Shown one piece after another: positions 6,524-63,908 of a DNA stretch of 64,000 nucleotides (positions are counted from its first letter, which is position 1; each line of letters starts with the position of its first letter). A program made the position numbers and the translations under genes. This stretch comes from Pseudanabaena sp. UWO311 (GTDB lineage Bacteria > Cyanobacteriota > Cyanobacteriia > Pseudanabaenales > Pseudanabaenaceae). Under the pieces are notes generated by a model. The model did no database searches. It was not told the origin of the DNA and worked only from the letters and a program-made list of their open reading frames with translations. The stretch covers positions 24,725 to 88,724 of the forward strand of contig CALRWX020000001.1 of NCBI GenBank assembly GCA_943371975.1. The letters are read 5' to 3'.

Positions 6524-7429
6524 CTAGGCAAATATTATCTCTTCACTACTAGTTTGGAAGTTAGCATCTAACCACACAATCGATATTTTAGTAACTTGCC
6601 CCGATTCTAAAGTAACTATTGAGAAGTTGCGATGTAATCCCTCATTAGTTTTGAGGATTCTCGGTGTCACCGCTGCATTGAGAAAAACTGTTCCCATCTC
6701 ATTAGTTGCGATCGCCTCACGTCTGCGGCTATTATTCAAGCGCAAATGGTGGTGCATATGACCGAAGGTAACTAATGGAATAGATTTACCCATTTGATAA
6801 GATTTAGAAATTGCCTCAGCAAAATCAGGATCTCCATAGTCGCCACCAATGGGTTTCCAATCTTTACCACAAATGGAATATTCTTCTTTGCCTAGCCCGA
6901 AGGGACCATTATGCCCCAGAAAAATAATATTTTCATGCTTAGCATTACCAACAGATTGGATAATCCTGTTAGTGGAATCTGTAAAATGATTTACTTGAAA
7001 GCGATCGCGGTAAAAGAAACTTTTCTTCCACTTTGAGCCGCCCCAGCTAAAGGGGCGCGAACCAACTACAGAGAGATTAAGTTCAGGAAAGTCAAGCCAG
7101 CAATAGCCAACATGACACTTACCTAAAACATCTAATTGCTGTTGAACGCGGTCTTCTTTGATGCGATCGTAAGGGCATTGCTTTTTAGGATGGAGTTTAC
7201 TATAGGGATCGGTGGAGCTATACCAAGCATCGTGATTGCCTAAAATAATTGCTTTTGGTAAGTTTAAATTGGCGATCGCCTTTACGATTTCAATGGACTC
7301 ATTGCCAAAGTCCCCCACAAATAGAACCAAATCAACATTTAATATATGCAGTGCTAATTGATCTTCAATAGGTTGCCATAAATCATGAACATCACCAACT
7401 ACAGCTATTTTGATGGATGATTTGGGCAT
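6524..7429 (-). CDS. metallophosphoesterase (calcineurin-like)
   Basis: Motifs GDVHD, GDFGNE, GNHD and GHMHH. I prefer the ATG at 7427-7429 (MPKSSIKIAVVGDVHD) over the upstream start at 7498. Confidence 0.85.
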   Translation of the reverse strand: MPKSSIKIAVVGDVHDLWQPIEDQLALHILNVDLVLFVGDFGNESIEIVKAIANLNLPKAIILGNHDAWYSSTDPYSKLHPKKQCPYDRIKEDRVQQQLDVLGKCHVGYCWLDFPELNLSVVGSRPFSWGGSKWKKSFFYRDRFQVNHFTDSTNRIIQSVGNAKHENIIFLGHNGPFGLGKEEYSICGKDWKPIGGDYGDPDFAEAISKSYQMGKSIPLVTFGHMHHHLRLNNSRRREAIATNEMGTVFLNAAVTPRILKTNEGLHRNFSIVTLESGQVTKISIVWLDANFQTSSEEIIFA

Positions 7430-7795
7430 AATTTCAAAAACATAAAATACTATAAAGCAATGCGCTAAGCACATTGCTTTATGAGAGTAGTATAGCAATT
7501 ACAGTTTTTCTAGAGGAATTTCATAATCTGATTCAGGTGAAATGAACCTGTCATCATCATGAGGATATGTTCCTCAGGCAAATTCAGGATTTTTTTGATT
7601 TCTAGATGTCGTAACCACGTTCATTATAGAAAGCTTTTGGAACCCTTGCTACCCCTGTCCCACCCCCTCAACCGAAGGATTGAGATATCAAGAGCCAAGA
7701 TACGTTTTGGAAACTTAAAAATTGGCTCTCAAGGGGCTTCCATGTAGGGGGTTAGATTTGAGAACTATGATCAAAATGGTGGCGTGATTTAGGTG

Positions 7796-11644: not shown

Positions 11645-13621
11645 TTAGCAAGCAAAGTTTGTAAAGGGAATTGTTGCCGCTTTGATGTCTGACTCTAGGG
11701 TCTGGTTGCGTTTGATAATCACCGGTTCCTGGATGAAGGCCAGCTCAGCTGTATTGAACGGAGTCGTTTGCTTATGGTGCTTGCCTAGGGCAACCTGCAG
11801 GGCTGCTTGTGGAGAATAGTCTTTCAGGGAGATGCCAGTAAGGCCGAGGATATTTGGCTCGGCTATGATTGGAGATCGGCCTGATGGCTGATCAAGATTA
11901 GCAATGCCAGGGGGATGATTGAGCTCGACGAGAAAATCAAGAACGTGTTGATTGTCAGTAGCAATAAACAGATTTTCAAACTTGCGTAAAATGACTAAGA
12001 GCCTTAGGGCCCTTTGCCCCCCTTCTCCGAGTCCCTTGAAGCCGAGGAAATTGGTTGATTGTTGTAAAAAAATAAGGGCATCACGGGCACCACTGTTGGC
12101 AAAGTGATGACTGGTTCCCGTAATCACATGGCGATGGTTACCAAAGCTATAGGCGAAGGGTTCATCCAGACACTGGGCGAGCTCCTTTAGAAGGGGTGCT
12201 TTTGCTTCAGCCTGGGTATCGGCTGAAATAATGCTAATGAGTAAGGTTTCGAGCCTTGCGAAGAATTTGTCCTCGTTGCTCACAAGCCGCAAGTAGTCTT
12301 CCCAGCGCTTAAGGATGGCTTGTTTGATTTGACTTCGCTTGCGATCGCATAGGTCTTTGTTGGCTTGGATCTGGCCAGAATCGCGGGCTTCTGCGATGGA
12401 TTCATGTACAAAGCTGCGTAGGGCATTGAGATGCAACATGGTTCCTGCATTCCCTATACCATTGGAATTTTTGATTTCATTGCAGGCGTTGAACATCAGG
12501 GCGCTTCGACAGTCTGGCCGAGGTATGAGAATTTGATTGGATGCATCGTCAAAGCTACAGAGAAAATGTAAGCCTCTGGCTCCTGCCAGAATGTCCGTTG
12601 CCTTTCTCTCTTCGGTGTCTACAATGACGAAACTCACTGGGTGATCGAGGGTGACTGTTCGATCCATTTCCAGTTGCTTCGTTAGGACTGCCCTGTTTTT
12701 GTCCTGATCACCAACCCAAATGCAATCGGGTTGATCGGCGATCTTGGCTAGGACCGAAACGCCAAGAGGATCGGCTTTTAGGCGGCCAAATTCTCCCCGA
12801 AGGTGGGTCGTAATTTCCTTGGTGAAATGATCGATTAATGTTACGAAATGGTTATGGGCTTCGCCAGGTCTGGTCAGAGCATGGCACAGCACTTCCATGG
12901 TATGAGTGATGCGAATGATATTGAGGCAACCAATGCCAATAGCAAGCATTTTGTTGATGCCACCGCTGCCTGCGCGGCCCTCATAGGGGTGCAGATCCGT
13001 ATCGCCACCGCTGATAATATAATCATAATGCCATAGCGCAGCCGGAAGCCCGATTCTTATGCACTCTGGTGGACTCGATTCGCCTATGCCTTGCACAACA
13101 GATTGATGATATGGGACTGTCGCATGGGTCTGGTCTTCGAAGGTTTTGGGTGGCGGGGGAATGGTGATGTACCGTTGGGGAAGCGGTTTTAGGGTTGTTT
13201 GCTGTTGCAGGGTGCTGCCCAGAGCGGCAAGGCGTTCCAGCCTTTGGGAACCCATCATGGTTGCGATGTCTTCATCTGACATTAGCGGATGGGTCCCAAG
13301 TCCGAAGATGATGTCAAAGGAAAGCTTCGGCTCGGATTGGCAGAGTTCAACCATCGCGTCGACGAGTAGTCGCGACGCGGTTTGTTTGCGCGTTTTATCT
13401 GGCAAAAGCAAGAGCACCCTGATGTCGCTTTGCAATTCGCTCGGATGGATCTGTGTCAGCAATGGCAGGAGGTGGTCGCGCAGTTGGGGAAGGCTGAGCT
13501 GCCGAGAAATTCCGCTAGCGGGCGCATCCTTGGGGATCAGAATCTGGGCGTCTAGGGGAAGCTCAAGATGGCTATTGGGATAACTTTTAAGGTCGATTTG
13601 TTGAGTTTTACCCAAGTTCAT
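11645..13621 (-). CDS. LarA-N (DUF2088, lactate-racemase-like) domain protein with an unrecognised ~300-aa C-terminal extension
   Basis: 658 aa. LLLLPDKTRKQ, FGLGTHPLMSDEDIATMMG and GGDTDLHPYEGRAGSGGINKM resemble the D-x-T-R, G-T-H and H...SGGxK motifs of nickel-pincer LarA. Confidence 0.65.
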   Translation of the reverse strand: MNLGKTQQIDLKSYPNSHLELPLDAQILIPKDAPASGISRQLSLPQLRDHLLPLLTQIHPSELQSDIRVLLLLPDKTRKQTASRLLVDAMVELCQSEPKLSFDIIFGLGTHPLMSDEDIATMMGSQRLERLAALGSTLQQQTTLKPLPQRYITIPPPPKTFEDQTHATVPYHQSVVQGIGESSPPECIRIGLPAALWHYDYIISGGDTDLHPYEGRAGSGGINKMLAIGIGCLNIIRITHTMEVLCHALTRPGEAHNHFVTLIDHFTKEITTHLRGEFGRLKADPLGVSVLAKIADQPDCIWVGDQDKNRAVLTKQLEMDRTVTLDHPVSFVIVDTEERKATDILAGARGLHFLCSFDDASNQILIPRPDCRSALMFNACNEIKNSNGIGNAGTMLHLNALRSFVHESIAEARDSGQIQANKDLCDRKRSQIKQAILKRWEDYLRLVSNEDKFFARLETLLISIISADTQAEAKAPLLKELAQCLDEPFAYSFGNHRHVITGTSHHFANSGARDALIFLQQSTNFLGFKGLGEGGQRALRLLVILRKFENLFIATDNQHVLDFLVELNHPPGIANLDQPSGRSPIIAEPNILGLTGISLKDYSPQAALQVALGKHHKQTTPFNTAELAFIQEPVIIKRNQTLESDIKAATIPFTNFAC

Positions 13622-54488: not shown

Positions 54489-54587
54489 AGTGCTTGTGCA
54501 AAATAAATTACCAAAACCCGTAAAGTTGCGCCCCAAAGGGGCGCAACTTTACGGGTTTTGGTTTGTAATTAATTATGCCTAACTACT
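54489..54587. mobile_element. MITE (99 bp), same family as 43357-43491, flanked by TA
   Basis: TA|agtgcttgtgcaaaataaattacc ... ggtttgtaattaattatgcctaactact|TA. The internal perfect hairpin is accaaaacccgtaaagttgcgcccc aaa ggggcgcaactttacgggttttggt. Confidence 0.7.
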
Positions 54588-54661: not shown

Positions 54662-56215
54662 TTAACGTACATATTTTAAGCTTTCTGTATTCTTAAAGAA
54701 GAAATCAGTAAAGAGACTAATAACAGTGCGCTCACGAATTTTAATATTTGCAGTTAAAGACATACCTGACTGCAAATTAATTTTCCTGTATTCGTTAATT
54801 TTGATGGCTTGTTTCTCAATCTGAACTTTAGCGGGGAATCGATAGGTAGGATTGGATTGATCGGGGGGAAGGGCATCAGAACCAATCCAAACTAGTTTTC
54901 CTTTAATATCACCAAATTCACTGAAAGGAAAAGAATCTAACCGCACATCAACGGGCATTCCTTCTTTAACAAAGCCGATATCTTGGTTAGTGATAAATAT
55001 TTTGGCGACCAATTGATCATCAGGAACTATTTTGAGAACACTTTCAGAAGTGCTGATATTCGCCACATAACCTAGCCCTGCTTTTAGCTCAAAGACTGTT
55101 CCTGAGACAGGAGCGCGTAACTCTTGATATTGCAAGGTGACAGATGCTTGACTAATCTGTCCTTCAACTTCGGCAAGACGTTTGCTGTTCTCTACTAGAG
55201 CCTTGGTCAACTGACTGTCGATTTCGGCAATTCGCTTGGTATTGTCAGCTATTTGCACTGTCAACTCTTTACGATTAGTGTCAAAGGTGTTATTTAGACG
55301 CGATCGCCCTTCTGTGATCGCTGCCATAAAACGCATTTCTTCCTGTTGCAGTTGACGGATTTCTGACTCAGTATTCTTGACCTCTTCCTGTTGTTTGAGA
55401 TATTGAATCCGCGCAATTGCCCCTTCATCGAAGGCATTTTTAATATCGTTAAGAATCTTTTTATTGATCGCTAGAGATTCTTGCCGAGCGAGCCGTTTCG
55501 TTTGAGTTTGGTTAAGCTGTTCAATTGTTTGCAAGATATTTGCCTCCGCCGCTTGCGATCGCGAATTTAGTTCTGATTGATTCGCTCTGAGCCGCTCCCT
55601 CTGATCGCCAGAAAGATCTGCGCCACCACCATTAAGCTGGATTCGATAGAGTTGTGATTCGGAAACAAGAGCCTCACGGTTACTGGCTAGTGATAATAAT
55701 TCGGCAGGGACAGCTATAGCTTTTTTAGTGGTAATTGGTGTGCGATCGCCAGTGAGAACAGATCGATAAAACTGATTTTCTTCTTGGAGATTCTGGCGCA
55801 GCTTCTGCAAGGATTCAAGTTGGGCTTTTGCTGCAGTGGCATCAATGCGTAATAGGACTTGTCCCTCAACAACCCGTTCACCATCCTTAACCAAAATTTC
55901 CTTAAGTACACCAGTGGCAGGTGTTTTGACTTCTTTGACAGTTCCCTGTGGTTCCAATTTGCCTTGGGCTGGTACTGATTCTTCGATTTTCGCGATCCAA
56001 GCCCAAATTAGCCCAAAGGTAACAGAACCAATTAATGTCCATAAAATCGCCTGTGTCCATTTTGATGATTGCCGTAGGACTAGTGGCTGATCAAAAGCTT
56101 GTGTATCATTCTCAAAGGCTTTGCCCGCATTGTCTTCATGAAGTCCATCAGATTGGATGCGATTGGCTTCTGGACTCAAACCGTTATTTACCGCCTTCAC
56201 ATTTACATCAGTCAT
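54662..56215 (-). CDS. HlyD-family type I secretion membrane-fusion protein
   Basis: 517 aa: N-terminal TM, lipoyl-like motif (GVLKEILVKDGERVVEGQVLLRID), a long coiled coil and a C-terminal beta-barrel. Confidence 0.9.
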   Translation of the reverse strand: MTDVNVKAVNNGLSPEANRIQSDGLHEDNAGKAFENDTQAFDQPLVLRQSSKWTQAILWTLIGSVTFGLIWAWIAKIEESVPAQGKLEPQGTVKEVKTPATGVLKEILVKDGERVVEGQVLLRIDATAAKAQLESLQKLRQNLQEENQFYRSVLTGDRTPITTKKAIAVPAELLSLASNREALVSESQLYRIQLNGGGADLSGDQRERLRANQSELNSRSQAAEANILQTIEQLNQTQTKRLARQESLAINKKILNDIKNAFDEGAIARIQYLKQQEEVKNTESEIRQLQQEEMRFMAAITEGRSRLNNTFDTNRKELTVQIADNTKRIAEIDSQLTKALVENSKRLAEVEGQISQASVTLQYQELRAPVSGTVFELKAGLGYVANISTSESVLKIVPDDQLVAKIFITNQDIGFVKEGMPVDVRLDSFPFSEFGDIKGKLVWIGSDALPPDQSNPTYRFPAKVQIEKQAIKINEYRKINLQSGMSLTANIKIRERTVISLFTDFFFKNTESLKYVR

Positions 56216-56260
56216 ATTACTTCACCTGTATCTACTAAAACGTATTTATGAATTTTTATG

Positions 56261-56290
56261 GTGCTTTGTGGTGCTTTGTGGTGCTTGCGT
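56261..56290. repeat. 10-bp tandem repeat (gtgctttgtg x2 plus gtgcttgcgt) in the ABC-hlyD intergenic spacer
   Basis: Direct reading. Confidence 0.8.
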
Positions 56291-56313
56291 TCTATTTATT
56301 AGTAACCTATCGA

Positions 56314-59265
56314 TCATGATTCGCCAGCCGCCTCTTGTTGGAGATAAAGTGTGTAATACAGTCCACGTTTTGCCATCAAATCAGGATGGGTTCCTTGTTC
56401 CGCAACTTGTCCCGCATCCATTACCAAAATCAGGTCAGCGGTGTGGATCGTCGCTAGGCGATGGGTGATAAAAAAGACAGTGCGCCCACGAAATTCTTCG
56501 GCAAGGTTGAGACAGACTTGACGCTCGGTATTGTAGTCTAAAGCGCTAGTTGCCTCATCTAAGATGAGTAATTGTGGCTTTTGTAAGACAGTGCGGGCGA
56601 TCGCAATCCTTTGTCTCTGTCCCCCTGAGAGGGCTGCCCCACGCTCACCAACCCGTGATTCATAGCCTTGAGGTAACTGCATAATGAATTCATGGGCGCA
56701 AGCTACACGAGCTGCTTCCGTGATTTCTTCGGGCGTGGCATCAGGATTAGTCAGTGCAATATTTTCTTGAACCGTACCATCAAAGAGCAAAGTATCCTGT
56801 AGAACTACGCCAATCTGACGACGCAGAGAATAAAGCTCAACTTTATTAACATCATAATCATCCACGAGAATGCGTCCTGACTCTGGCTCGTATAGTCGCG
56901 ATAGTAACTTCGTGAGAGTACTCTTACCCGCACCGCTAGCACCCACAACCCCAACAAACTTACCTGCAGGAACTTCTAAACTGACGTTATTTAGTTGGAG
57001 TTTCCCATTCGGAACAAAGCGAAAATGAACATTCTCATATCTGACTGCGCCCATAATTGCAGGCATAGGAATATTACGCCGACCTGCTTCTTCTTGCTCT
57101 TGAGGGTGATTGATAATATCGCTCAGTCTTTCAAGGGAGAGGGCAGTCTCTTGGAAGTTCTGCCAAAGCTGAATCAATCGCAATAGCGGCGTAGTCGTAT
57201 AACCTGCAATAATCCGAAAGGCGATTAACTCGCCAAGACTTAATTTATTAGCAAGTACTAGATAGGCTCCAACCCAGAGCAGTAGCAAGTTTGACAATTG
57301 GTTGAGAAATTGGCTAGTTGCTCCCGCAGTAGTGGAAGTCACAACGTTTTTAAAACCTGCGGAAACATAACGAGCATATCGACGTTGCCATTCCCATCGT
57401 GATTTTAACTCAATGCTTTGAGCCTTAACTGTTTGAATCCCTGAAACGACTTCTACAAGGTAGGATTGAGTAGTGGCATTACGTTCTGCCTTGGTTCGCA
57501 ATTGTCCGCGAATAATTGGCGACACAATAAATGTGAGCAAAGCGAATAAGGGGACTGTTCCCAGCGCTACTAGGGTCAACAACCAGCTATAGCAAATCAT
57601 TACAACGATATAAATCACTGAGAAAACTGCATCTAAAACAACAGTCAGGGCAGTTCCTGTGAGAAATTGGCGAATATTCTCTAGCTCACCAATGCGACTA
57701 GATAATTCCCCAACTGATCGCTTTTCAAAATAGCTCAAAGGTAATCGCACAAGGTGATCAATAGTTTCGGAGCCAAGGGTTAAATCGATACGGTTGGTGG
57801 TATTAACAAAGAGATAGGTTCGCAAGGCACTAATGACGGCTTCAAATACGAAAATCGTCACAAGGAGAATACCCAGAGTATTCAGCGTTGCAGGGGCGTT
57901 TTGGATAATTACCTTATCAATAATTACCTGTGTGATCAAGGGATTTGCTAGCCCTAGTAATTGCACAAAGAAAGAGGCGATTAATACCGTAATTAAGGTG
58001 TTTTGATAACGCTTTAGGGATGGTAAAAACCACGATAGACCAAACTTGAGTTGGGGTGTATCCTTGGTTGGTTGAACTAATAAAACTTGTCCTGAATCAC
58101 CCCAAAGATCGGCAAATTGAGAGGTTTTTTTAGTAACGATCCCTTGTTCAGGAATGCCTAAAATCAGTTCGCGATCGCTGGCCTTGTAAAGTACTGCAAA
58201 GGTATCCTGCCAAGGTAATAAAGCAGGTGTTGGCACTTGAGCAATCAATCTAGCAGGAATCGATAGTAACTGTCCATTTAAGCCCATCAGTTCAGCAATC
58301 GCCCCACATAGCTGCAATGACAATTTAGGAGATCGAGCAAATTGACTATCGATGGCACGCTTGACTACATGGCGATAAAAAGGCATTTGCCAATACCTCG
58401 CTAACATTTGGAAGCAAGCAAGGGAAGCATCAACGGGACCACGACCATAAAAATGCGGATAATCAGTACCTTTGGGATTAGTTATCTCTCCAACCTTCGG
58501 TAATTCAGGAGCGTAGGGAATATCTAAAGCAGTTAGTACTGGCATTTCCTTCACGACTTCCACTTTGACTGCAAAATTATCTCGCAAACCGATTAAACGA
58601 ACATTCCCCTCCTGCGAAACTTCAAGGAAGTCATTGTCATTTACAGACTCAATGCGACTACCCACGGCTGCGCCGAAATGATCACTACCACTAACTAGCC
58701 ATACAAAATCGCGATCGAGTTTAGACAAAGGCATTTTACCTGCTGTCAAGGTCATCACCGATGCCCCTGGTAAGGCATCACGCGCTAGCTGTGCTAAATT
58801 AGCAGGAATCTGCGCCCGCCGAGCCATTTCTGCGGCAAGGAGATCGAATACTTCGATCAAGCCCACTTTGTTTGTAAAAGCAGCTTTAAACGCAGGATTA
58901 CGATCGCAAAATTGCAAAAAATCTGATGCTTCTAATGCTAAACAGGTACTTTCTATAGAAGAAATTATCCTTTCACAAGGTACGTTACGAATTAGGCTCA
59001 CCCAACCCATGACCGCCCTCGGTTTAAGAATCTCTAAAGTATCCGATGATGTTGCTTTGGGAACTTGTCCCAGTAACCTTGCTTGTCCCTCCATCAAAAA
59101 TAGAACCTGCGCTGGCATCGTTTCTCGACGTAAAATCACCTGTCCCATGCCATAGCGTAAAGGCTGGACTCGTTCGCTTAATTCTTTTAAAGTCAGGCGA
59201 TCAACCGCTTGTAACTCTGGCACAAGCGAGAGAAAGTCTTGAATGGAAGGTATTATAGATGTCAT
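56314..59265 (-). CDS. type I secretion ABC exporter with an N-terminal cyclic-nucleotide-binding domain and a degenerate C39-like domain
   Basis: 983 aa. cNMP-like beta-roll (RYGMGQVILRRETMPAQVLFLMEGQARLLG). The C39-like region has A at the catalytic Cys position (VDASLACFQML) and T at the catalytic His position (DTFAVLY). There are 6 TM segments, Walker A GASGAGKST, signature LSGGQRQR and Walker B LLILDEATSALD. Confidence 0.9.
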   Translation of the reverse strand: MTSIIPSIQDFLSLVPELQAVDRLTLKELSERVQPLRYGMGQVILRRETMPAQVLFLMEGQARLLGQVPKATSSDTLEILKPRAVMGWVSLIRNVPCERIISSIESTCLALEASDFLQFCDRNPAFKAAFTNKVGLIEVFDLLAAEMARRAQIPANLAQLARDALPGASVMTLTAGKMPLSKLDRDFVWLVSGSDHFGAAVGSRIESVNDNDFLEVSQEGNVRLIGLRDNFAVKVEVVKEMPVLTALDIPYAPELPKVGEITNPKGTDYPHFYGRGPVDASLACFQMLARYWQMPFYRHVVKRAIDSQFARSPKLSLQLCGAIAELMGLNGQLLSIPARLIAQVPTPALLPWQDTFAVLYKASDRELILGIPEQGIVTKKTSQFADLWGDSGQVLLVQPTKDTPQLKFGLSWFLPSLKRYQNTLITVLIASFFVQLLGLANPLITQVIIDKVIIQNAPATLNTLGILLVTIFVFEAVISALRTYLFVNTTNRIDLTLGSETIDHLVRLPLSYFEKRSVGELSSRIGELENIRQFLTGTALTVVLDAVFSVIYIVVMICYSWLLTLVALGTVPLFALLTFIVSPIIRGQLRTKAERNATTQSYLVEVVSGIQTVKAQSIELKSRWEWQRRYARYVSAGFKNVVTSTTAGATSQFLNQLSNLLLLWVGAYLVLANKLSLGELIAFRIIAGYTTTPLLRLIQLWQNFQETALSLERLSDIINHPQEQEEAGRRNIPMPAIMGAVRYENVHFRFVPNGKLQLNNVSLEVPAGKFVGVVGASGAGKSTLTKLLSRLYEPESGRILVDDYDVNKVELYSLRRQIGVVLQDTLLFDGTVQENIALTNPDATPEEITEAARVACAHEFIMQLPQGYESRVGERGAALSGGQRQRIAIARTVLQKPQLLILDEATSALDYNTERQVCLNLAEEFRGRTVFFITHRLATIHTADLILVMDAGQVAEQGTHPDLMAKRGLYYTLYLQQEAAGES

Positions 59266-59392
59266 ACAAACGTTTATGAAACGATTTTGATGTAATGCTG
59301 CTTTTTGAAAAAGGTAAATTTTTTACGGCTTAATCTTGCCATACTTTGACGTAAAGTGTTGATAGATAAATAGAATGCTAGCGATTGTTAAT

Positions 59393-60121
59393 TTATACCA
59401 TCACAAATGTTGCCATTTGTTGCGCCACATTTTCTTCTAACCATTTACTAAATCCTTCATCAATTAACCGTCGCTGCATTGCTTCATCAAGGATTGCTGG
59501 CAACAACTTCTCAAGCCTTACGACGACGATCAAATCACCGATTACAGCGGGAGGCTGCACCTGTCCCGCGTCACTGGAAATCAACATGGTTCCTAAATTA
59601 GGATGAATCGAACCAATCTCTACAGGCCCAATCAATCCTCCCGTTTGTGATTCTGGTCCTTGTGAGTATTCCCGTGCTAGTTCGTCGAAAGACTGCTCTC
59701 CTTCTTTGATCCGAAAGTACAATTCTTGAGCAATACAAGGATCTTTAGTGCAAATTAGTGAATAAATAACGCGATCTAGTTGTTTTTTGCGTTCCAAAAA
59801 AACGGAATTAACTTTACCTCCCCATGTTTCCTGTTTAAACTTTGTTAACTTTAACGATTTTTCGGCTCGTTTTTCTAAATCGATGCGGGTCATCCCTTGT
59901 TGTTTTAGCCAAATCCTCAACTTTTCATCTGCGTCAATTCCTAATTGTTGAAAAGCCTGTTGATGTGCATTTTTCTGATCTTCGGGGGTAAGCGATATAT
60001 CAGATGTCACGCGATCGAGTGTCATTTCTCTGACCAGTTGAGGCAACATACCATAAGTGACCAATTTCTCAACCAATATTTCTGCTCGAAATTTACCTCC
60101 ATTAATTTCTACTGCTTTCAT
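59393..60121 (-). CDS. parvulin-type peptidyl-prolyl cis-trans isomerase (no signal peptide seen)
   Basis: 242 aa with a SurA/PrsA-like N-terminal helical part and a C-terminal rotamase segment (FDELAREYSQGPESQTGGLIGPV). Confidence 0.75.
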   Translation of the reverse strand: MKAVEINGGKFRAEILVEKLVTYGMLPQLVREMTLDRVTSDISLTPEDQKNAHQQAFQQLGIDADEKLRIWLKQQGMTRIDLEKRAEKSLKLTKFKQETWGGKVNSVFLERKKQLDRVIYSLICTKDPCIAQELYFRIKEGEQSFDELAREYSQGPESQTGGLIGPVEIGSIHPNLGTMLISSDAGQVQPPAVIGDLIVVVRLEKLLPAILDEAMQRRLIDEGFSKWLEENVAQQMATFVMV

Positions 60122-60563
60122 ATAGTATATAAGATTCTAGCTTCTTGTTTTCTTACATAATATTATCAGGCTGTATGGGGCAAGATTTTTATATAAACAA
60201 ATGCCAAGCAGTCGCCCATCATCATAAATTAACGATCGCGCACGGCTTCACATCAAAAGTAGCTTGCCTTCAACTCAGTGATACTAGTCCCTTGCGAATA
60301 CCAACGATCGCTGCTAGATAATCAATCCGTTCTAGAAGTTCTTGTTATGTTCCTATTATGTTCCTAGGGGCATTTTTCAGGTGTTTTGAGTGATTAAAAA
60401 AAGCCAAATAGATTTTCTATCTGTTCATTTGGAATGCTATCAAATTCTTGTAATAGTAATTATTTAAGGGTCATCGCACCTTAATTCAACCAACGATCGC
60501 CCCCCCTCAACCTCACAAATCGACGATTATTTGTAAAAATCAAATAGCTTTTTTTGAGAGAAA

Positions 60564-61067
60564 CTATCTAACCTTAAATTTGACTGAATCTGTTGTATAA
60601 ATTTTATCATTCCATCTATAAGTTACAACAGCATCAAGTTCTTTCCAGTCTGCAAAGCCATTAGAATTAGTTAGATGAAACCCTTGCTCTAGAATCTGTA
60701 ATCCACCTAGATCAAAGGCACTTAATACCTTTGATATTAGAATTTTATGATTATTAGACTGACGGATCTCGATTTTGGTAAGATTAGCAGCGATGTTATC
60801 TAAGCTCAGATTTTCTACTTTAATCCTAATCACAACATGTCCAACTGGATGTCCTAATGAAGCCCCAGGAGGAGGGACAAGATCTTCATAAGCCTCGAGA
60901 AGAGTAAAGCTGAGTCGGAAGGGAAGTGTTTGAGGATTCTGAGTCATAGTTCTGAGTTGATAAGTAGAGATTTCATTCAATCGCGGTGCTAGCGGTAATG
61001 AGGTGACGGATTTGAGATTAGTCGATACCCATACCCAAAACAAATCAAGCATAAAATATACCATCAA
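60564..61067 (-). CDS. hypothetical protein (167 aa, or 127 aa from the ATG at 60945-60947); I recognise no family
   Basis: An ORF between the calpain-like gene and the PPIase gene. The composition looks beta-rich. The start is ambiguous (MMVYF... or MTQNPQ...). Confidence 0.5.
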   Translation of the reverse strand: MMVYFMLDLFWVWVSTNLKSVTSLPLAPRLNEISTYQLRTMTQNPQTLPFRLSFTLLEAYEDLVPPPGASLGHPVGHVVIRIKVENLSLDNIAANLTKIEIRQSNNHKILISKVLSAFDLGGLQILEQGFHLTNSNGFADWKELDAVVTYRWNDKIYTTDSVKFKVR

Positions 61068-61102
61068 ACTTTTAATAATTTCGATGCTTACCAGACAAGA
61101 CG

Positions 61103-61140
61103 AAAGCCTATTCAGAAAGTTTCGGTTCTGAATAGGCTTT
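61103..61140 (-). terminator. stem-loop 30 nt downstream of the calpain-like gene
   Basis: aaagcctattcagaa agtttcgg ttctgaataggcttt, with a weak T-run. Confidence 0.5.
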
Positions 61141-61169
61141 TAGCTCATTAGGTTTACTCAGTCTTAGGG

Positions 61170-63908
61170 TTAAGCAATAGCAACGCCAAAGTTAAAGGCA
61201 CTACGGAACTCATCTAAGCTCAAATCAATGAATCCATCGCTAGCATTACCACTAGCTGTTCGTCCATCTACGCCCCAAGGGTTACGTACTACCACACGCT
61301 GCTGATTACTAGAGTTGACATAAGCATTTGTCACCGAGTAAGCATGACCAGAAACGATGAACGCGGTATCAGCAGAGCCAACACGTCCCGTCTCTACAGC
61401 TCGTCCGCTACTAAGGGCAGTTTGCAGTTGAGTGAAAGTGACACTACTTGCATTGTAGTTGTTCACAGTCCTTCCTGTAATAAATGACAAAGGATTCACT
61501 AGATTGTCTCCATTACCAATACGGTTATAGCCGGGAGTACCTTCTCGCCCTTCCAGCCATTGAGCATATGCACGCTCAGCCAGAGGAACCCACAGTGCAC
61601 GACTAGCGCTAGCACCAAACAGCTGCCCGTTATATGTTGCCAGTCGGTTATCAACAGTTACATACTGAGCACTGCCATTGGAGTAGAAACGGAAAGTATA
61701 AGACTGGATTCCTGACACAGAATCTACACCATTGCTCTCGATCATGCTATTAATCACAGAGCTAGATTGGTTCCCAGCGTCATTAGATTGCGCGCCGAAA
61801 GTTGAACCCAATGCTGCTAAGAAAGCGCAATCACCAAAACTACCTTGATTAATATCACCAATCCGAGCTTGTCCAGAACTGCCAAACAAGTTACCTTGTA
61901 CTGCTGTGTGTGCGAAGGTGTAGTTATTAAAAACGGCAGTAGGGGCTACTGTTCCTAGGAACCAACGACCGACCAGACTAGACTCAAATTGACTAGCCGA
62001 AATATTGGCAGATGCACCATTAGCAACTTGTGTCGCTAGATATGTCACAGAATCAGTTAAAGCAAAGCGAGTGGAGTTAGCGACAATGGCACGTAAATCA
62101 GTAACCTCAGTTGCATCAACAACTCCTCCGTCTTCAGCATTGCGGAAGATAGAAAGAATATCATTACGACTCAAACTACCATCGGCAGCGAGAGAACGGG
62201 TTAAGCTGATAATTTCCGCATCACGGAGATTTTGGGTATACCAGTCGGTAGGTGCAGGTGCAGGTGTAGGTGCAGGTGTAGGTGCAGGTGCAGGTGTAGC
62301 TGTTAAAGCGAGGTTGTAGTTGGTATTGCCACTATACTGATAAACTCGCGCAAAGTAATTACCAGCAGCCAGAGTACGGTTAATTGTGTCGGCTGTTGTA
62401 CCACCATTGATAGAACGTTGTAGCACCTCACCTGCATCAACAATCCCATTGTTATTCAGATCTTGAATTAGCTCTACATCCGCATCTGCACTTAATCCGT
62501 TGAGGGTCAGATTAAAGGTGCTTGGGGCATTGACTGAGAAGCGATAGAAGTCGTTGGTGTCTCCAGTACCTACCCAGTCACTGAAGCTCTGTGTACCACT
62601 TAATGTACCAATGTTACGTGCCGCACCAAGTGTGTTACCTGCACCATCAGCCATAGCTGTAGCTGTTAAAGCGAGGTTGTAGTTGGTATTGCCACTATAC
62701 TGAGAGACTCGCGCAAAGTAATTGCCACTACCCAGAATACGGTTAATTGTGTCGGCTGTTGTACCACTATTGTTAGAAAGTTGTAGCACCTCACCTGCAT
62801 CAACAATCCCATTGTTATTCAGATCTTGAATTAGCTCTACATTCGCATCTGCACTTAACCCGTTGAGGGTCAGATTAAAGGTGCTTGGGGCATTGACTGA
62901 GAAGCGATAGAAGTCGTTGGTGTCTCCAGTACCTACCCAGTCACTGAATCTTTGTGTACCACTTAATGTAGCAATGTTACGCGTCGCACCAAGTGTGTTA
63001 CCTGCATAATCTACAGCCGCCGCACTGACGGTGTAGGTTCCTCTATCAGTTGTCGAGGAAGCACGTGCGCCTAGGTAATAAGTACCCGTATAGCCAGCAG
63101 TGTATGTGATTAGAGAGTTGCGATTGCCGCCACTGTTATCATTGGAGGCTATTGCCACACTAGAACTATTAAACAGGGTTAGGAAAGGATCTCCGAGAGT
63201 TGTAAGGTTTTGACGAAACTCATAGGTTGTACCTGCGACTAGGTTGACACGGAACCAGTCTGTATCTCCTCCAAAGTTAATTGTTCCTGATATAGCTCCA
63301 CCAATGTTGACAACCCCTGTTGTTGTTGCATTCCCCGCATAGTCAATATTTAGTTCCGCAGAGGTTCTCTGACCATTAATAGTGATAAACCCAGTATCAT
63401 CTTCGCTTCTGATGCGAGCTAACTCAGAAGCACTGAGAGACTGACCAAAGATCAAATTGCTTGCAAGCTCGCCTTCATCACCCCTAGTATCTGCTCCTAC
63501 GAGATCATCTAACCAATGAAAAGTCTCTTCGACTAGAACACCTGCTGCACCCAAAAACGAATTAGATGGCGCAGCATTGGCTCGAAATAGTACATCAGAA
63601 AGGTAGACTGTCCGATTTAAACTGACATAGGCTCCAAGAGCCTCATTTGCATTAGCTGCCGAAAGTATTTGGACAGACGGCAATTGACTAAAATCACCTA
63701 CCGACCATTGCGATCGCACTGCTCGCAGTTCAGACGTATTTGCTTTATCTCCAAAAACCTGTGCGAACAGGTCAGGGTTACTTGCCGATTGCTGAAGCCT
63801 TTCCCTAACTAAACCTAAGACATCTGGAAGCTGATTTGTCCCAAAAATTGAAGCATCCGCTCCACTGCTCACCCCAAAGGTCGCTCCTGAATTCTGACTA
63901 CCAAACAT
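61170..63908 (-). CDS. large multidomain calpain-type (peptidase family C2) cysteine protease, probably secreted without a Sec signal
   Basis: 912 aa with no signal peptide. N-terminal VLVEETFHWLDD...GDEGELAS module, then three pre-peptidase-C-terminal-like domains (GDTDWFRV; 2x GDTNDFYRF) and a PAPAPTPAPTPAPAPT linker. The C-terminal catalytic domain carries QGSFGDCAFLAALGS (Cys), SGHAYSVT (His) and VRNPWG (Asn). Confidence 0.85.
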   Translation of the reverse strand: MFGSQNSGATFGVSSGADASIFGTNQLPDVLGLVRERLQQSASNPDLFAQVFGDKANTSELRAVRSQWSVGDFSQLPSVQILSAANANEALGAYVSLNRTVYLSDVLFRANAAPSNSFLGAAGVLVEETFHWLDDLVGADTRGDEGELASNLIFGQSLSASELARIRSEDDTGFITINGQRTSAELNIDYAGNATTTGVVNIGGAISGTINFGGDTDWFRVNLVAGTTYEFRQNLTTLGDPFLTLFNSSSVAIASNDNSGGNRNSLITYTAGYTGTYYLGARASSTTDRGTYTVSAAAVDYAGNTLGATRNIATLSGTQRFSDWVGTGDTNDFYRFSVNAPSTFNLTLNGLSADANVELIQDLNNNGIVDAGEVLQLSNNSGTTADTINRILGSGNYFARVSQYSGNTNYNLALTATAMADGAGNTLGAARNIGTLSGTQSFSDWVGTGDTNDFYRFSVNAPSTFNLTLNGLSADADVELIQDLNNNGIVDAGEVLQRSINGGTTADTINRTLAAGNYFARVYQYSGNTNYNLALTATPAPAPTPAPTPAPAPTDWYTQNLRDAEIISLTRSLAADGSLSRNDILSIFRNAEDGGVVDATEVTDLRAIVANSTRFALTDSVTYLATQVANGASANISASQFESSLVGRWFLGTVAPTAVFNNYTFAHTAVQGNLFGSSGQARIGDINQGSFGDCAFLAALGSTFGAQSNDAGNQSSSVINSMIESNGVDSVSGIQSYTFRFYSNGSAQYVTVDNRLATYNGQLFGASASRALWVPLAERAYAQWLEGREGTPGYNRIGNGDNLVNPLSFITGRTVNNYNASSVTFTQLQTALSSGRAVETGRVGSADTAFIVSGHAYSVTNAYVNSSNQQRVVVRNPWGVDGRTASGNASDGFIDLSLDEFRSAFNFGVAIA
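62251..62298. repeat. hexanucleotide microsatellite (ggtgca/ggtgta x8) encoding the PA/PT linker
   Basis: Direct reading. Confidence 0.9.
62297..63006. repeat. tandem duplication, period 363 bp (121 codons), two copies about 95% identical
   Basis: I aligned 62297-62643 against 62660-63006 by eye and found about 17 mismatches in 347 bp. The mismatches cluster in three short patches. Confidence 0.9.

Follow-up and report, generated by a model that had tools for sequence, protein, structure and literature searches.

A calpain-type protease gene in the presumed cargo slot of a HlyB-type secretion cassette in Pseudanabaena, with a conserved, putatively exported small partner

In a 64,000-nucleotide stretch of Pseudanabaena sp. 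UWO311 (contig CALRWX020000001.1, positions 24,725 to 88,724; hereafter the window), five genes on the minus strand encode, in this order, a calpain-type cysteine protease (63908-61170), a small open reading frame (ORF; 61067-60564), a parvulin-type peptidyl-prolyl isomerase (PPIase; 60121-59393), an ATP-binding cassette (ABC) exporter (59265-56314) and a HlyD-family protein (56215-54662). Judging from sequence, predicted folds and gene neighbourhoods, we hold it to be of slightly better than even probability that the calpain is the cargo of the adjacent type I secretion system (T1SS) and acts outside the cell, with the small protein exported separately as its inhibitor or immunity factor. The locus would then consist of two units, one being the PPIase–ABC–HlyD cassette and the other the calpain gene with its small β-sandwich gene. 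An earlier note on this DNA, which had proposed a dedicated protease-export module, gave the order, strand and coordinates of the five genes correctly, and profile searches with Pfam and NCBIfam agree with its domain identities (Peptidase_C2, three PPC, parvulin, ABC exporter and HlyD). The elements of the locus are as follows, in window coordinates.

61170..63908, minus strand: calpain-type (C2) cysteine protease of 912 aa without signal peptide, the proposed T1SS cargo (Pfam)
63339..63908, minus strand: N-terminal domain of the calpain, ~190 aa, without Pfam or NCBIfam match
62289..63323, minus strand: three PPC domains, N-terminal to the protease (Pfam PPC)
62241..62288, minus strand: Pro/Ala/Thr-rich linker TPAPAPTPAPTPAPAPT, read from the translation
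61173..62240, minus strand: helical pre-domain and calpain protease core (AlphaFold2 (AF2) model, Foldseek)
61173..61238, minus strand: C-terminal 22 aa of the calpain, DGFIDLSLDEFRSAFNFGVAIA, a strand-helix-strand element of the core
61103..61140, minus strand: terminator-like hairpin between calpain and small ORF, with a 15-bp stem and a weak T tract
60564..61052, minus strand: small ORF of ~162 aa, candidate periplasmic inhibitor (homologues, AF2 model, neighbourhood)
60122..60563: spacer of 442 bp between small ORF and PPIase, joining the two units
59393..60121, minus strand: PrsA/SurA-like parvulin of 242 aa without signal peptide, first gene of the cassette (Pfam Rotamase)
56314..59265, minus strand: T1SS ABC transporter of 983 aa (Pfam cNMP_binding, Peptidase_C39, ABC_membrane, ABC_tran)
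58897-59157, minus strand: cNMP-binding domain of the ABC protein, an extra N-terminal domain (Pfam)
58063-58431, minus strand: C39-like domain of the ABC protein, catalytically dead (Pfam, alignment)
57184-57996, minus strand: transmembrane domain of the ABC protein (Pfam)
56545-56994, minus strand: nucleotide-binding domain of the ABC protein (Pfam)
54662..56215, minus strand: HlyD-family membrane-fusion protein of 517 aa (Pfam HlyD_3, TIGR01843)
54513..54559: strong bidirectional terminator hairpin with a 20-bp stem, ~100 bp past the HlyD stop codon

The 912-aa protein matches Pfam Peptidase_C2 (E 3.6e-20) in addition to its three PPC stretches, and the contexts of its catalytic triad (GDC…, GHAYS and RNPWG), already recognised in the earlier note, withstood alignment with m-calpain: C694 (61827-61829), H855 (61344-61346) and N876 (61281-61283) pair with Cys105, His262 and Asn286, and the three columns are invariant in 38 homologues. 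In the AF2 model, residues 545-912 adopt the two-lobed fold of a calpain protease core (pLDDT 92.7), whose best Foldseek matches are the cores of calpain-1, -3 and -9 (E ~1e-13 to 1e-14, to 4e-14, over ~300 aligned columns). The C2-like and penta-EF-hand domains of classical calpains are absent from the protein by Pfam, and in some cyanobacterial homologues core Ca site 1 is the only one present (Rawlings 2015, PMC4631099).

As the earlier note had it, the calpain bears no Sec or Tat signal and no RTX repeats: its N-terminus is not hydrophobic (maximum KD15 of 0.85) and a twin-arginine motif is lacking. Signal-like N-termini were likewise found in no family member that could be read from its start, in line with the 3 of 66 bacterial calpain homologues reported to carry a signal peptide; the same survey found PPC domains to be unusually N-terminal in these homologues, which are rare C2-family proteins present in 14 of 53 cyanobacterial genomes (Rawlings 2015, PMC4631099). 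Throughout the family, accessory domains (PPC, Calx-beta and occasional RTX repeats) are all N-terminal and the protease core always lies at the extreme C-terminus, and this combination of signal-less N-termini with a core at the free C-terminus would fit C-terminal export. The single cysteine among the 912 residues is the catalytic one, and the PPC domains and near cysteine-free sequence suit an extracellular protein. The N-terminal domain of ~190 aa recurs in other calpains (P0054, L028) and at the start of two further proteins, one with RTX repeats (P0102) and one of Calx-beta type (P0101); it may be a module common to exoproteins of cyanobacteria. PPC2 and PPC3 are tandem copies with ~87% identity in a pairwise comparison (window 62289-63020, residues ~297-540), which indicates a recent internal duplication.

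The proposal that an amphipathic C-terminal tail serves as a T1SS-type signal is weakened. The last 22 residues form a strand, a helix and a strand of the folded core (E349-353/H354-360/E364-367 of the AF2 model, pLDDT 95-97), and the motif …DGFIDLSxxEFxxxFxxGVxIA (in distant members …LELSWxEIxxNFSYWD…) ends nearly every family member, resembling the end of eukaryotic calpain protease cores. Because the tail is a folded, family-conserved core element, it is not independent evidence of a secretion signal.

The transporter genes yielded a clear assignment. The ABC protein passes the HlyB model TIGR01846 of NCBIfam (733.3 bits against a cut-off of 725.55) and its best match in the Protein Data Bank (PDB) is E. 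coli HlyB (E 4e-166, residues 279-975). The position of the catalytic Cys in its C39 domain is Ala280, aligned with Tyr9 of HlyB, and the catalytic His is also lost; the six homologues encoded at calpain-linked loci have lost both residues as well. The C39 domain being dead, the protein is a haemolysin-type transporter with a C39-like domain (CLD) and not a peptide-cleaving exporter. Its partner passes the HlyD-family model TIGR01843 (217.9 bits against 208.65) and has a hydrophobic segment at approximately residues 56-75, so that the pair is a true HlyB-type T1SS. No OEP domain was found in window ORFs of at least 400 aa, in agreement with the earlier statement that the window encodes no TolC-type factor; TolC is commonly encoded unlinked to the rest of a T1SS.

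The first gene of the cassette encodes a protein with a Pfam Rotamase match (E 4.8e-9) and a weak SurA_N_3 match, whose non-hydrophobic N-terminus agrees with the earlier reading of a PPIase without signal peptide. Its nearest PDB relatives are PrsA foldases (PrsA1, 5htf, E 3e-5 over residues 9-171). At the first parvulin His of PrsA1 ('RHILV') it carries a Ser ('YSLIC'), as seen in one pairwise alignment and for this first His only, so that the protein may serve as a chaperone and not as an isomerase. In related loci the PPIase gene always comes before that of the ABC protein. The earlier note had made the PPIase part of its candidate dedicated module, but it is not specific to this locus: the order SurA/rotamase–long ABC (CAP_ED + C39)–HlyD has been described as the 'group I bacteriocin cluster', with 57 such clusters in all but one surveyed cyanobacterial genome, and group VI clusters add S8 peptidase genes that were read as extra cleavage enzymes (Wang et al. 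2011, PMC3140520). Since the trio is near-universal in cyanobacteria, the PPIase is a generic, standard part of the cassette. Our search of the literature on sll1180/sll1181 returned no usable functional paper.

We searched the window PPIase against annotated cyanobacterial plasmids and inspected 12 cassettes. A large extracellular-type gene lies upstream on the same strand in eight, a divergent giant Ig-domain protein is encoded in two, and the remaining two show nothing obvious. The following proteins or genes were recorded next to these cassettes.

PCC 7002 plasmid, upstream of cassette: ExeM/NucH nuclease, 1686 aa
PCC 7120 alpha, upstream of cassette: PPC-domain protein
Acaryochloris marina pREB1 (L108): RTX protein carrying 26 GGxGxD motifs, its gene lying after two HlyC-like lysine-acyltransferase genes
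Calothrix PCC 7716 p5 (L106), Aulosira laxa NIES-50 (L105) and Calothrix NIES-4105 plasmid3 (L109): giant genes of ~31-35 kb (>10,000 aa)
N. flagelliforme, upstream of cassette: PKD protein
Nostoc TCL26-01, upstream of cassette: Calx-beta protein

None of the three cargo-slot proteins that could be read from the start shows a signal-like N-terminus. Sequence was read for five of the proteins, in two giants for the last 1,500 residues, and none of the five contains a Cys. The window calpain occupies the slot in which related cassettes carry these presumed cargoes. The Acaryochloris locus has the layout of a haemolysin-style operon into which a PPIase gene has been inserted, and one of the three giant genes is annotated as peptidase S8/S53. 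In Aulosira and in Calothrix NIES-4105 a small opposite-strand gene intervenes between giant gene and cassette. Opposite-strand genes of ~245-255 aa stand between giant gene and PPIase at four loci (L105 5734-6492, L109 4878-5648, L104 5866-6600 and L110 4456-5193); two of the four are annotated 'filamentous hemagglutinin outer membrane protein', and the gene may be another recurrent accessory of the cassette.

Linkage of calpain and cassette genes is also seen well beyond the window. After de-duplication, 80 distinct calpain clusters covering 877 kb were available, and eight of them have a cassette within ~10 kb, seven with a full CLD-type ABC and one with a partial one (L034). By a rough estimate, ~0.3 linked clusters (<0.5) would be expected by chance, taking Wang's 86 SurA-containing clusters in the surveyed genomes and assuming genomes of ~4-5 Mb. 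A further locus, L081, was not counted: its HlyD match, of 270 aa, is a fragment that adjoins a two-partner-secretion gene. The linked loci fall into at least three architectures, and the excess over chance holds even when no more than three independent architectures are counted.

The window layout is repeated in two other assemblies. The same five genes are present in Pseudanabaena ABRG5-3, where an insertion sequence (IS) element separates calpain and small ORF, and L033 retains the full order calpain–small–PPIase–ABC–HlyD at identities of 39% for the calpain, 46% for the PPIase, 57% for the ABC protein and 48% for HlyD. L002 shows the order PPIase–ABC–calpain–small, and L034 the order ABC–calpain–small with a convergent HlyD gene. 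In Nostocales-type islands (L041, L057/L038, L065 and L071/L018), genes for PPC-S8, PPC-calpain and S8 proteins stand between the PPIase–ABC pair and a convergent HlyD gene, a layout in which L041, L057, L065 and L018 match the 'group VI' of Wang. The check for neighbourhood conservation called for by the earlier note therefore gave a divided answer, positive for the eight clusters, L033 and ABRG5-3 and negative for the majority of calpain loci, which are unlinked, and for the broken synteny described below; likewise, the protease–T1SS coupling it had proposed gains from a linkage far above chance and from the cargo slot and is missing at most calpain loci. Within the protease island of L018, a YhaV-type toxin gene and a small ORF upstream of it (6814-7597) separate the calpain gene from the second S8 gene. 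The ABRG5-3 insertion (L001 8898-9959) is a DDE_Tnp_1 transposase gene, and the flanks beyond HlyD in that genome differ from those of the window.

The small ORF downstream of the calpain, an orphan in the earlier note, turned out to encode a conserved calpain partner. A family member detected with a hidden Markov model (HMM) directly follows the calpain gene at 22 of 64 loci, the 64 being the distinct calpain loci with at least 800 bp visible downstream; a Pantanalinema genome is among the loci with such a member (hhalign 99.9%). Two further HMM rounds added no members among the loci, and the ORF after the L015 calpain, tried as a candidate homologue, proved not to be homologous. Comprising ~113 cluster representatives among 1.84 billion proteins, the family is unannotated. 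Its homologues of 161-166 aa show that, of the two lengths given earlier (127 and 167 aa), the long form is real and the short one is not; the protein probably starts at 'MLDLFW' (ATG 61052), which gives ~162 aa. Because a hydrophobic N-terminus is present in 86 of 105 full-length members, and a lipobox-like Cys in 34 of 105, the family appears to be mostly exported. Following a disordered N-terminus, the AF2 model shows an eight-strand β-sandwich (residues 50-167, core 60567-60920, pLDDT >90), for which Foldseek returned only generic β-sandwiches (ApaG, the TMEM106B luminal domain and glycosidase Ig-like domains, with TM 0.4-0.5). Neither Pfam nor NCBIfam contains a relative, and a profile search against PDB sequences gave zero matches.

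Three Nostocales-type genomes (L008, L011 and L012) carry intact small ORFs without a calpain, in a kinase / small ORF / aminotransferase synteny shared with L010, which keeps its calpain. The contigs compared here are Nostoc/Anabaena FACHB contigs and a metagenome-assembled genome (MAG) of the Leptolyngbyaceae, with the lone small ORF between Ser/Thr kinase and aminotransferase genes; in Anabaena subtropica the same kinase/aminotransferase site also holds a 999-aa calpain.

By the mechanism we consider most likely, the calpain would be kept unfolded after its synthesis in the cytoplasm and would travel, C-terminus first, through an ABC–HlyD–TolC channel, with TolC encoded elsewhere. The dead C39 domain would probably dock the substrate instead of cleaving it, and we infer that the cytoplasmic PrsA-like parvulin keeps a cargo devoid of RTX repeats unfolded and export-competent, much as SecB keeps HasA unfolded for export. 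The cNMP domain may gate this export. Outside the cell, the calpain would be active as a cysteine protease. For the small protein we envisage a separate exit, through the Sec or lipoprotein pathway, and a place in the periplasm or on a membrane as an inhibitor or immunity factor directed against the protease, in the manner of AprI for AprA; the inhibitor role in particular, proposed by analogy with that pair, strikes us as a possibility of somewhat less than even probability.

Several observations weigh against export of the calpain by the neighbouring cassette. At most long-flanked calpain loci (L010, L013-L017, L022, L023 and others) no cassette lies within 10 kb, and on a MAG contig 97% identical to the window (L007) synteny is lost inside the 442-bp spacer, at a GCGATCG site at ~60473, beyond which the calpain–small pair adjoins an ABC importer and not the cassette, which leaves the 'dedicated' of the earlier note unsupported. 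That note's own caveat, that gaps of 98 (HlyD/ABC), 127, 442 and 102 bp and the hairpin at 61103-61140 preclude one tight operon, was reproduced from the coordinates, and the hairpin after the calpain gene together with the 442-bp spacer before the PPIase gene points to at least three transcription units for the five genes. RTX repeats are the usual ligand of CLD-type transporters, and the window calpain has zero GGxGxD matches; its C-terminus is a folded core element with no free tail. In the partner protein of the window the N-terminus is short, weakly hydrophobic and without basic residues, no known inhibitor appears among its Foldseek matches and no function can be read from its fold. Elsewhere in the calpain family RTX repeats do occur, as in L093 and in a Gloeobacter homologue with 8 of them (Rawlings 2015, PMC4631099). 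In the spacer, several GCGATCG (HIP1-like) sites are found at window 60240-60540, one of them the site of the L007 break, and the 106 bp nearest the PPIase gene are the only part conserved with ABRG5-3.

Some of these observations are what would be seen if the adjacency had no functional meaning, a self-contained calpain–small pair having landed beside a housekeeping T1SS and the calpain staying in the cytoplasm or leaving by lysis, vesicles or an unlinked system. The pair without cassette at most loci, the break inside the spacer and the separate transcription units all agree with such a history, as do the IS element that splits calpain and small ORF in ABRG5-3 and the contrast, between the two Pseudanabaena, of a cassette 92-95% identical with a calpain at 63% and a small ORF at 52%. 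We nevertheless regard it as unlikely, because eight linked clusters in at least three architectures far exceed the expectation, the five-gene order persists in L033 at 39% calpain identity, proteases are lodged between ABC and HlyD genes in the Nostocales-type islands, and the calpain sits in the very slot held elsewhere by RTX and giant proteins; PPC domains and near absence of cysteine would, moreover, poorly suit the cytoplasm. A different purpose for the same export would see the calpain used as a T1SS-delivered weapon on competitors or grazers, with the small protein as cognate immunity factor. This special case of the export proposal draws on the fast divergence of the calpain–small pair relative to the transporter, on the resemblance of the calpain-less small ORFs (L008, L011 and L012 compared with L010) to orphan immunity genes, and on the varied domain architectures N-terminal to the core. 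It seems to us rather improbable, however, given that no delivery or translocation domain was recognised, that there are no arrays of alternative toxin tips or immunity genes, that PPC domains typify secreted proteases of the ordinary kind and that relaxed constraint on an extracellular enzyme could produce the same divergence.

The published classification of SurA–long C39 ABC–HlyD loci as bacteriocin clusters, with the S8 proteins of group VI as cleavage enzymes (Wang et al. 2011, PMC3140520), would instead make the ABC protein a cleaving exporter of double-glycine leader peptides, with the calpain as an auxiliary processing enzyme. We reject this for the window, where it is very improbable: the C39 domain lacks both catalytic Cys and His, and the ORFs of at least 20 aa in 60100-61200 include no credible precursor. 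By the authors' own count there are 0.35 candidate precursors per group I cluster (Wang et al. 2011, PMC3140520), and related cassettes adjoin RTX and giant proteins.

Export of the calpain by the cassette, the explanation we prefer, has precedents of varying closeness. Like E. coli HlyCABD, the locus combines an ABC protein bearing an N-terminal dead C39-like domain with a HlyD adaptor, places the presumed cargo gene immediately upstream of the transporter genes and leaves TolC elsewhere, and on the Acaryochloris plasmid the resemblance extends to HlyC-like genes and an RTX cargo; the window locus differs in the extra cNMP domain of the ABC protein, the PrsA-like parvulin gene before the ABC gene, a cargo without RTX repeats, the lack of an acyltransferase and genes that do not form one tight operon. 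In aprDEF–aprA–aprI of Pseudomonas aeruginosa and prtDEF–inh–prtABC of Dickeya, a T1SS lies beside a signal-less secreted protease and a small periplasmic β-protein inhibitor. With T1SS, signal-less protease and small, separately exported β-protein, these serralysin loci come closest in function to the layout we propose, but their proteases are M10 metalloproteases with C-terminal RTX repeats, whereas ours belongs to C2, and their ABC transporters have no N-terminal domain. The conserved adjacency and the signal or lipobox N-termini of the family would fit a serralysin-type layout, the window protein itself having a weak N-terminus; for the small ORF, no match to inhibitor family I38 was obtained in sequence or in fold (Pfam, NCBIfam, PDB sequences and Foldseek).

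The staphopain–staphostatin pairs (scpA–scpB, sspB–sspC) offer another arrangement of a cysteine protease gene followed by the gene for a small all-β inhibitor. Their topology is the reverse of the one proposed here, in that staphostatins are cytoplasmic and staphopains Sec-exported; staphopain is only a weak match of the calpain model (Foldseek rank 39) and the small proteins share no similarity. The group I and VI clusters of Wang share our cassette, and the S8 genes of group VI correspond to those of L041, L057, L065 and L018, but the paper reads them as peptide-bacteriocin machinery, whereas here C39 is dead and the large signal-less proteins nearby look like cargo.

The cassette itself is known, though probably misfiled, and the calpain family is known as well. 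What appears to be new is the calpain–cassette linkage, the cargo-slot pattern and the conserved, putatively exported partner, for which we found no published description. Our searches for literature on calpains with cyanobacterial exoproteomes or T1SS found nothing relevant, so that the earlier note's remark that such a coupling had not been described still stands. Calpains receive zero mentions in Wang et al. 2011 (PMC3140520), and the survey of Rawlings 2015 (PMC4631099) left gene neighbourhoods aside (the word 'operon' does not occur in it) and describes neither a T1SS linkage nor a partner protein. By the latter account, no bacterial calpain is securely characterised and the exit route of signal-less forms is not known (Rawlings 2015, PMC4631099); the route suggested by the present locus would be the first proposed for a bacterial calpain.

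The locus and its relatives offer a concrete T1SS route for a calpain together with a candidate natural inhibitor. They also suggest that a cassette which nearly all cyanobacteria possess, and which for 15 years has been classed as nearly precursorless bacteriocin machinery, is a protein exporter with adjoining cargo genes, which would matter for cyanobacterial exoproteomes and for engineered protein secretion. A bolder extension, which we put forward as speculative and on the doubtful side, is that the small β-sandwich founds a new family of proteinaceous calpain inhibitors, counterparts of calpastatin by function only: it would act as a periplasmic shield for the producer of a T1SS-secreted calpain, calpain-less copies would guard against the enzymes of neighbours, and the group I/VI 'bacteriocin clusters' would be protein exporters in which a PrsA-like cytoplasmic chaperone replaces the RTX/Ca2+ means of preventing folding.

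A promoter scan gave no signal above the shuffled background, and nothing was drawn from it. Elsewhere in the window, a 658-aa ORF at 11645-13621 on the minus strand has no Pfam match at E <= 1e-5, and the other large genes scanned are ordinary ones encoding GcvP, TamB, Omp85, transketolase and LysRS.

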